From NCBI GenBank assembly GCA_965116925.1, contig OZ220744.1, positions 4,192,001 to 4,256,000 of the forward strand: 64,000 nucleotides of DNA, in the 5' to 3' direction. A model generated the notes under the pieces. That model did no database searches. It was not told the DNA's origin and saw only the letters and a program-made list of their open reading frames with translations. Made by a program: the position numbers and the translations under genes. This DNA is from Candidatus Poribacteria bacterium (lineage in GTDB: Bacteria; Poribacteria; WGA-4E; PCPOR2b). This document shows positions 43,445 through 43,575 of this stretch, in pieces (the stretch's first letter is position 1; the number at the start of each line of letters is the position of its first letter).

Positions 43445-43473
43445 TTGAAACCAATGGCATCAAAGGGTATACT
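43445..43473 (+). promoter_or_regulatory. Promoter of the putative antisense RNA, cassette A
   Basis: TTGAAA-17nt-TATACT, conserved at 45898-45926. Confidence 0.65.
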
Positions 43474-43479
43474 ATAAAA

Positions 43480-43575
43480 CAGTTGTTAGGCGTTCTCCCT
43501 AACAATCACGAAGCGATTCGAGGTTATGTCTCGTGCTGCTTCAGGGGGCTTCGAGCGGCAACTCGGAGCTCCCAC
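43480..43575 (+). ncRNA. Putative three-hairpin cis-antisense RNA, copy A
   Basis: Three consecutive stem-loops after a promoter. The 12-bp third stem needs G-U pairs, so it is perfect only on the + strand. Confidence 0.6.

Follow-up and report, generated by a model that had tools for sequence, protein, structure and literature searches.

We analyzed a regulatory module that is present twice in a 64,000 nucleotide stretch of a Candidatus Poribacteria bacterium genome (contig OZ220744.1, positions 4,192,001 to 4,256,000 of the forward strand). This whole stretch is here referred to as the window, and positions are those of the window. Copy A is located at 43445..43575 and copy B at 45898-46028. 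The repeated 200-base module probably represents an antisense-RNA-controlled transcription attenuator, a kind of regulator known chiefly from plasmids. Judged by its sequence it appears to be a real, conserved and not yet catalogued element, in which a known kind of regulator takes a new form. Its anatomy, conservation and strand bias, as well as the competing helix and its covariation, are shown by the sequence comparison.

From these features we infer two transcripts, binding between both RNAs, a kinetic race and a direction of effect. A promoter on the - strand would give rise to a leader of about 215 bases (about 285 in copy A), running through three hairpins, across a promoter on the + strand and into an intrinsic terminator that precedes the start codon by about 40 bases. 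In the ON state, the 3' arm of hairpin 2 would pair with the emerging terminator loop and compete with the terminator, leading to read-through of the polymerase. In the OFF state, a stable hairpin RNA from the facing + promoter would bind to the leader during its synthesis, presumably by loop-loop contacts, and cover hairpin 2, whereupon the terminator could form. The output would be set by the ratio of the two promoters and sharpened by their collision.

Organization of the two copies in the window

The following features were assigned to copy A and copy B.

43445..43473, + strand: antisense promoter of copy A, TTGAAA-17-TATACT (consensus match 10/12; hexamers more conserved than the spacer)
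43480..43573, + strand: predicted antisense RNA of copy A (5' end placed from the promoter, 3' end not defined)
43483-43505, 43510-43542 and 43544-43573, + strand: hairpins 1, 2 (with a 2x2 internal loop) and 3 of copy A, from folding
43513..43522, - strand: antiterminator strand a of copy A, the 3' arm of hairpin 2 in the leader (predicted helix)
43416..43425, - strand: antiterminator strand a' of copy A, the terminator loop and last stem base (predicted helix)
43399..43432, - strand: intrinsic terminator of copy A (stem 43406-43432, U-tract 43399-43405)
43379-43457, - strand: long G-U-rich stem enclosing the terminator of copy A, from folding
43649..43678, - strand: candidate leader promoter of copy A, TTTGCA-18-TATAAT (consensus match only; 75 bases past hairpin 3)
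45898..45926, + strand: antisense promoter of copy B, TTGAAA-17-TATACT (consensus match 10/12)
45933..46026, + strand: predicted antisense RNA of copy B (hairpin 1 at 45936-45958, hairpin 2 at 45963-45995, hairpin 3 at 45997-46026)
45966..45975, - strand: antiterminator strand a of copy B (predicted helix)
45869..45878, - strand: antiterminator strand a' of copy B, in the terminator loop (predicted helix)
45853..45885, - strand: intrinsic terminator of copy B, inside a long stem (45833-45910)
46037..46065, - strand: leader promoter of copy B, TTGACA-17-TAGAGT (consensus match; 10 bases separate its -10 from hairpin 3, as is most common in the family)

The original prediction, which was made from the two copies, had described the promoter TTGAAA-17-TATACT on the + strand, three hairpins, differences at 10 of 20 loop positions (A/B: CGTTCTC/TATCCAC, GTTATGT/TCTATCT and CGGCAA/CTGGCA) next to an identical terminator loop, and three changes in stem 3 (G-U>G-C, U-A>U-G, C-G>U-G) that keep pairing on the + strand only. 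All of these were read directly in the window, where the loop differences divide into 4+3+3. Both copies are real; the family is larger than this pair, with five strong and two divergent copies in the genome.

The minimum-energy fold of the + strand consisted of the three hairpins, with z-scores of -5.5 (A) and -7.2 (B) that none of 200 shuffles equalled. The - strand of the same region folded with z = -3.0 and z = -4.8, respectively. Hairpin 2 of copy A carried an A-C mismatch in the lower stem and its hairpin 1 a G-U pair at the base. A U-tract after hairpin 3 was absent in A and weak in B. The repeat shared by both copies reaches from where the downstream gene starts as far as hairpin 3. 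The terminator was missed by a simple scan because its loop is longer than 8 bases.

Two facing promoters

Copies below 100 bits in the profile search were left out of the wobble, loop-distance, folding, promoter and downstream open reading frame (ORF) counts. Two further rows of the alignment were left out of the folding set (69 copies) and five of the helix-lengthening comparison. The count of + strand pairing and covariation is based on 53 hand-picked rows and the four-fold-site comparison on 13 copies.

The + promoter matched the consensus at 9-11 of 12 positions in 70 of 71 copies, and hairpin 1 started 7-9 bases past its -10 in nearly all rows listed. Its hexamers were more conserved (mean pairwise differences of 0.04 and 0.09) than the spacer (0.29). 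The best - promoter reached at least 10/12 in 53/71 copies, with the -10 located 9-12 bases beyond hairpin 3 in 38/71. Where an extra hairpin was inserted, the - promoter was displaced outward with the insertion. Two near-consensus promoters are facing each other about 110 bases apart, and since the hairpins fill this gap, the overlap of the two predicted transcripts holds the hairpins. All promoters are sigma-70-type consensus matches and not measured starts; by such matches the module carries a convergent antisense promoter inside the leader at fixed spacing, as expected of an attenuator of this kind.

Several palindromes are located near these promoters. Upstream of promoter B, 46099-46127 is a palindrome of 13 pairs with a 3-base centre, whose symmetry is kept among the homologs listed while its sequence changes; it is a candidate operator or stop hairpin for the predicted + transcript. 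A long AT-rich palindrome upstream of promoter A (43685-43722) shows compensating changes in relatives and is resembled by palindromes at G000:C1 2831040, 2831382 and 3591539. In its core this palindrome is similar to the -35 region of the + promoter, and locus L105:7319 looks like a deletion between such a palindrome and that -35 region. A 7-5-7 palindrome upstream of promoter A was not established as an operator, since its 11 genome matches at one mismatch compare with 10 for a control with a 9-base spacer.

Strand bias and covariation of the hairpins

On the + strand 95.8% of the alignment cells were paired and 19 of 32 pairs changed on both sides (53 rows), compared to 91.7% and 6.5 in shuffles. 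The same helices were paired in 87.7% of cells on the - strand (73 rows). Hairpin 2 was more stable on the + strand in all copies (69/69) and the three hairpins together in 68/69, whereas the long stem around the terminator was more stable on the - strand in 55/69. Wobble pairs in 71 copies, counted as cells and not as events, were split between the + and - strand 76/4 (hairpin 2, lower stem), 122/8 (hairpin 3) and 1/10 (terminator core). Hairpin 2 would be weak in the leader because its G-U pairs become A-C there. Hairpin 1 had no strand bias (7 vs 6 wobble cells) and was missing from several copies. Hairpins 2 and 3 are the core of the module. The predicted RNA has stem-loops as well as an internal loop in the recognition hairpin, and a predicted intrinsic terminator lies between the antisense target and the gene; both are features of antisense attenuators.

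The strand bias also bears on a cis-acting leader switch, riboswitch-like or protein-binding, in which a ligand or protein on the - strand leader decides and the + promoter is secondary. In favour of it, the terminator, the long stem and the a:a' helix belong to the - strand, the copies are located 5' of genes, and the upper stems of hairpins 2 and 3 have a motif in common beyond what pairing explains. We nevertheless regard such a switch as rather unlikely. The hairpins are destabilised on the very strand on which it would have to act (68/69 copies; 87.7% against 95.8% paired), and variability is highest in the loops, where a ligand pocket or binding site would be expected to show conservation. 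The fixed + promoter 7-9 bases before the first hairpin, found in the two-hairpin form described below too, would be left unexplained, and no Rfam riboswitch matched in the window or in six related loci.

A competing helix between hairpin 2 and the terminator

On the leader strand, 10 bases of the terminator loop complement the 3' arm of hairpin 2, which would explain why this loop is identical in A and B. The resulting helix a:a' was paired in 97.8% of cells (73 rows), compared to 13-50% in slid registers. Its duplex energy was matched by 0/1000 (A) and 4/1000 (B) shuffles. A G-to-A change in a was found in seven rows of at least two lineages, with U opposite in 7/7, and in 0/39 rows with C opposite; in one row a second pair had changed jointly in hairpin and loop. 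Five copies of genome G017 carried two extra bases, by which a:a' was lengthened to 12 pairs.

When growing leaders of A and B were folded, the helix was present before the terminator was finished. In leaders cut after a' its probability exceeded 0.5 in 54/69 copies (A 0.94, B 0.92). The helix even beat the finished terminator in 7/69 copies, where the terminator returned (0.79-1.0) once the antisense-covered part was blocked. In the A/B class about two or three bases join the helix to the terminator 3' arm, so that by geometry helix and terminator should exclude each other; mutual exclusion is less clear in copies with a longer loop.

A two-hairpin subfamily was found in addition. Its six copies carried TTGACA-17-TATACT 8 bases before hairpin 2, and the folds of five of them showed an 11-pair helix that joins the terminator 5' arm to hairpin 2, by its loop and arm. 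By sequence this subfamily seems to follow the same switch logic with another wiring.

Two other pairings were considered. An antiterminator formed by the hairpin 3 arm and the terminator 5' arm was dropped, as many copies had only 5 complementary bases. The model also paired the -10 region with the terminator arm in a second helix, but did so both with and without blocking, so that this helix is not discriminating.

Several results weigh against an antisense-controlled attenuator. The finished terminator won at equilibrium with or without blocking (median 0.99 in both cases; A 0.97, B 0.99), so that in most copies the polymerase would read through only if a kinetic trap acted within a brief interval. 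Occupancy of the terminator 5' arm was equal with and without blocking (0.29 and 0.30). Both-side changes were found in only 2/10 a:a' pairs, a value reached by 14/500 shuffles, the end pair was broken in 12 rows, and the helix was not favoured in 15/69 copies. Most copies lacked a U-tract after hairpin 3, and a discrete RNA of 95-110 bases would thus need trimming or another stop. The predicted + RNA has almost no 5' tail, and the U-turn (YUNR) motif was present in few loops (8-22/72 per loop and strand). No regulator gene was recognised beside the window cassettes. Finally, terminator and promoter occur elsewhere without the hairpins, and a more distant family (L124, L125, L127, L129) has remnants in which hairpins 2 and 3 are accompanied neither by the + promoter nor by an adjacent terminator.

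In L004 (G000:C1 about 2220330-2220470), L105:7319, L103, L098, L147 and L149 the terminator is kept, with or without the + promoter, and the hairpins are lacking. These cassettes are natural deletion controls. Two of the four remnants of the distant family lie just past the end of a + strand gene and the - promoter is kept in 3/4; they are probably decayed transfers.

The dominance of the terminator at equilibrium would suit a model in which transcriptional interference, or the formation of double-stranded RNA for RNase III, is the main effect of the + promoter, with the hairpins stabilising or pausing the + transcript and a:a' being incidental. The convergent near-consensus promoters are separated by about 110 bases, and the + RNA, being without a clear terminator, would run into the leader promoter. 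According to the available parts of two papers, convergent transcription alone can yield switch behaviour (PMC3134472, PMC4519249). This model does not explain why the terminator loop conserves a complement of hairpin 2, nor the coupled changes or the second wiring, and we consider it unlikely.

The strands a and a' are also inverted repeats of 10-12 bases flanking the + promoter, the inversion of which would aim this promoter at the gene and split the terminator. The module might accordingly be a device at the DNA level, either an invertible promoter or a small mobile element with the hairpins as recombination or protein-binding sites, and the number of cassettes at the locus indeed varies in relatives. 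The mismatches are strand-biased G-U wobbles though, the two-hairpin form is without these repeats, and no recombinase ORF was recognised beside the arrays. An inverted-state junction or second orientation was not found in 20 genomes of the genus (the sole pattern match was not the element), where assemblies can hide a rare orientation. In one array a duplicated end of the flanking permease gene points to tandem duplication instead. Altogether a DNA-level device is highly improbable, and the invertible promoter was rejected. In contigs of two runs over 41000-47000, no strand-changing joint at the element was present among the 15/16 joints listed, which carries no evidential weight since contigs drop rare forms.

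Loop variability and independent control

Among 73 homologs the mean pairwise difference was 0.49-0.60 in the loops and 0.03-0.20 in the stems, in line with the expectation of the original prediction that loops vary more than stems. It had further proposed that the loops diversified so that each cassette is controlled independently. This part could not be upheld. The distance of loops 2 and 3 was 6.5 within genomes and 7.0 between genomes (147 within-genome pairs), or 4.5 and 5.4 in the A/B class (43 pairs), a comparison in which recent duplication can mask a signal. Fourteen within-genome pairs share loop 2 and four share loops 2 and 3. In genome G009 two copies 7 kilobases (kb) apart have all three loops identical and unrelated genes behind them. 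What stands of the interpretation is a structured + strand RNA antisense to the leader, predicted from the conserved promoter, the wobble bias, the 19/32 covarying pairs and the a:a' switch.

Loops differed slightly more than four-fold sites of the adjacent signal peptides (0.37 vs 0.28, from non-independent pairs; A vs B p = 0.064). Loops that serve as their own targets can drift freely, which explains the variability equally well. Cross duplexes reached -146 to -151 kcal/mol compared to about -209 kcal/mol for cognate ones, and the hairpin 2 stems are nearly invariant. Cross-talk between modules is at least as likely as independence. According to the parts available of a study on loop-loop attenuators, orthogonality is their central difficulty and is not set by the loops alone (PMC3753616).

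The + RNA could in principle be an independent small RNA or a protein decoy with targets elsewhere, the overlap with the leader being a by-product. It has its own promoter, strong + strand structure and an insulating upstream hairpin, often with U-tracts on both strands. Its position and orientation relative to an exported-protein gene are fixed, and its only exposed parts, the loops, are drifting freely, as expected if the same DNA encodes the target. We therefore give this possibility very little credit.

Distribution of the module

A DNA search gave matches in 21 of 61 genomes, including 17 of the 19 other genomes of the genus. The exact pattern was found at 54 loci of the species collection, all titled Poribacteria, and neither in viral contigs nor in metagenome contigs. 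A covariance model built from 53 copies matched 21 of 101 genomes of the phylum (12/12 in the genus) with up to 15 matches per genome. Within the searches made, the module is found in Poribacteria only. Five metagenome matches obtained with a looser pattern were regarded as chance, as none had the promoter or hairpin 3. Among the plasmids and phages searched there was neither a module match nor sequence likeness.

We found no published description of the module in a search of mostly non-subscription papers, which did not cover the supplement of PMC5737381. The word Poribacteria-1, a motif name attributed to Weinberg et al. 2017, is absent from the main text of PMC5737381, and the Rfam search described next would include this motif only if Rfam 15 contains it.

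When the Rfam 15 covariance models were run on both strands, no match reached the cut-off in the window or in six related loci. The known riboswitch match that could have contradicted the original prediction was hence not found there. Six weak matches lay below the cut-off, with TD-1 as the only cis-regulatory family among them; a match to isrD (E = 0.018) was rejected as a generic terminator match.

Relation to known regulatory systems

In plasmid ColE1, RNA I is antisense to the 5' part of the longer RNA II and consists of three stem-loops of about 100 bases in total with loops of 6-7 bases. The module is alike in these respects. Unlike ColE1, it has no replication origin or primer, hardly any 5' tail and no clear U-tract after the third hairpin, and its target would be a terminator switch.

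The following comparisons refer to those parts of the cited papers that were available. In plasmid pIP501, binding of RNAIII to the repR leader removes the antiterminator and the terminator forms, and convergent transcription matters as well (PMC4981023). In pT181 the target hairpin contains the antiterminator in its stem and requires an interior loop close to the top (PMC3753616). The module resembles both in having promoters that converge, a structured antisense RNA (predicted here) that lies within the leader and measures about 100-140 bases, a target hairpin with an internal loop close to its top and a candidate antiterminator in its stem, and an intrinsic terminator ahead of the gene. Unlike them, it is chromosomal and present in up to 15 copies per genome, precedes genes for exported proteins and not for a replication initiator, has no adjacent Cop-type repressor gene, and in its main form would pair the antiterminator with the terminator loop. 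Anti-Q of pCF10 from Enterococcus faecalis acts likewise on the prgQ leader and is titrated by stronger sense transcription (PMC3181467). In contrast to pCF10, the module has an overlap of about 110 instead of 223 bases, is multicopy, is known from sequence only, and no PrgX-like regulator or peptide gene was identified.

In the parts of the literature examined, antisense attenuation concerns single plasmid or virulence loci (PMC4981023, PMC3753616, PMC3181467). Here, the same design would be a portable chromosomal module with two wirings before many unrelated exported-protein genes of an uncultivated sponge symbiont. Its approximately 70 natural variants with sigma-70-type promoters could serve as a test set for the orthogonality of loop-loop attenuators, usable in E. 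coli or in vitro.

A plasmid copy-number control module was rejected, since the downstream genes encode exported proteins, the chromosomal flanks are conserved and no plasmid or phage matched. A type I toxin-antitoxin system, with a small hydrophobic toxin under about 60 amino acids (aa) that the antisense RNA controls through translation or mRNA stability, was rejected as well: the first genes are mostly of 70-450 aa with signal-like starts, and the predicted antisense RNA does not overlap the ribosome site or the ORF.

The nearest described architecture seems to be that of TD-1 and TD-2 of Treponema denticola. According to the available part of their description, seven TD-1 copies overlap the reverse complement of TD-2, two hairpins are common to both and TD-2 is presumed to be a non-coding RNA, with no mechanism given there (PMC1950547). 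Like the module, these are multicopy chromosomal motifs 5' of varied, poorly characterised genes. TD-1 (RF03155) matched the leader strand of copy B with 24.7 bits compared to a cut-off of 64.5 (E = 0.7), and copy B is not a member. No TD-1 was found in this genome in a search in which the control genomes gave none either, and viral contigs contained no match to a pattern built on the TD-1 consensus. In this consensus, a block that is conserved and unpaired reads as a -10-like hexamer on the opposite strand, aligned near the -10 of the + promoter of the module, with no matching -35 at 17 bases. By analogy, the module provides a testable hypothesis for TD-1/TD-2.

More speculatively, the modules may form a cross-talking network in which the antisense RNAs of all 5-15 copies are one pool with a common threshold and each locus flips by promoter collision, TD-1/TD-2 of Treponema being a second independent case of the design. 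We hold this extension to be doubtful, if conceivable. If true, the cells of a sponge symbiont could vary in their display of hypervariable exported proteins with no rearrangement of the DNA.

Cassettes and downstream genes

Each copy in the window heads a cassette on the - strand, consisting of a small ORF with a signal-like start, a partner of 350-400 aa and a 3' trailer with its own terminator.

43082..43373, - strand: ribosome site (43368-43373) and cysteine-rich ORF of 92 aa (43082-43360) with a signal-peptide-like start, cassette A
41506..42971, - strand: ORFs of 405 aa and 83 aa with hydrophobic starts, cassette A; the 405-aa ORF ends in the partner-protein motif
44319..45814, - strand: ORFs of 144 aa (45380-45814) and 348 aa (44319-45365) with hydrophobic starts, cassette B
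44064..44310, - strand: 3' trailer of cassette B, hairpin and U-tract terminator (counterpart in cassette A: 41256-41500)

In 59 of 72 copies a ribosome site and an ORF were located 38-65 bases past the terminator, and 53 of these 59 ORFs had a hydrophobic start, compared to 288 of 1303 background ORFs. The first genes belong to many unrelated groups, mostly of 70-450 aa with signal-like starts. The module is thus predicted from sequence to control genes for exported proteins. No Pfam match at the cut-off was obtained for five cassette proteins including the 92-aa product, and the Atlas gave no usable match for the 92-aa protein or a cassette B protein (best 0.80, and none). In five relatives the locus of the window carried two to four variable cassettes after the same permease gene.

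At L003:6397-8112 and in five relatives the module precedes a gene of 571 aa with a twin-arginine-like leader, which is oxidase-like by sequence reading; the module would accordingly also control probable enzymes. The large partner proteins (window 41757-41870 and 44370-44470) have nothing in common beyond a hydrophobic start and, at the C-terminus, a motif of about 30 residues. This motif was found seven times in the genome, three of them behind a full module, and is possibly a sorting or partner-binding signal.

Both 3' trailers (41256-41500 and 44064-44310) contain two hairpins and a U-tract, an arrangement that recurs after most cassettes in relatives. They are adjoined by repetitive extragenic palindrome (REP)-like repeats at 41117-41237 and 43947-44043. 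Two tandem transposase-like ORFs of 390 and 394 aa, assigned by sequence reading, are located at 36230-38622, about 3 kb from the cassette array.
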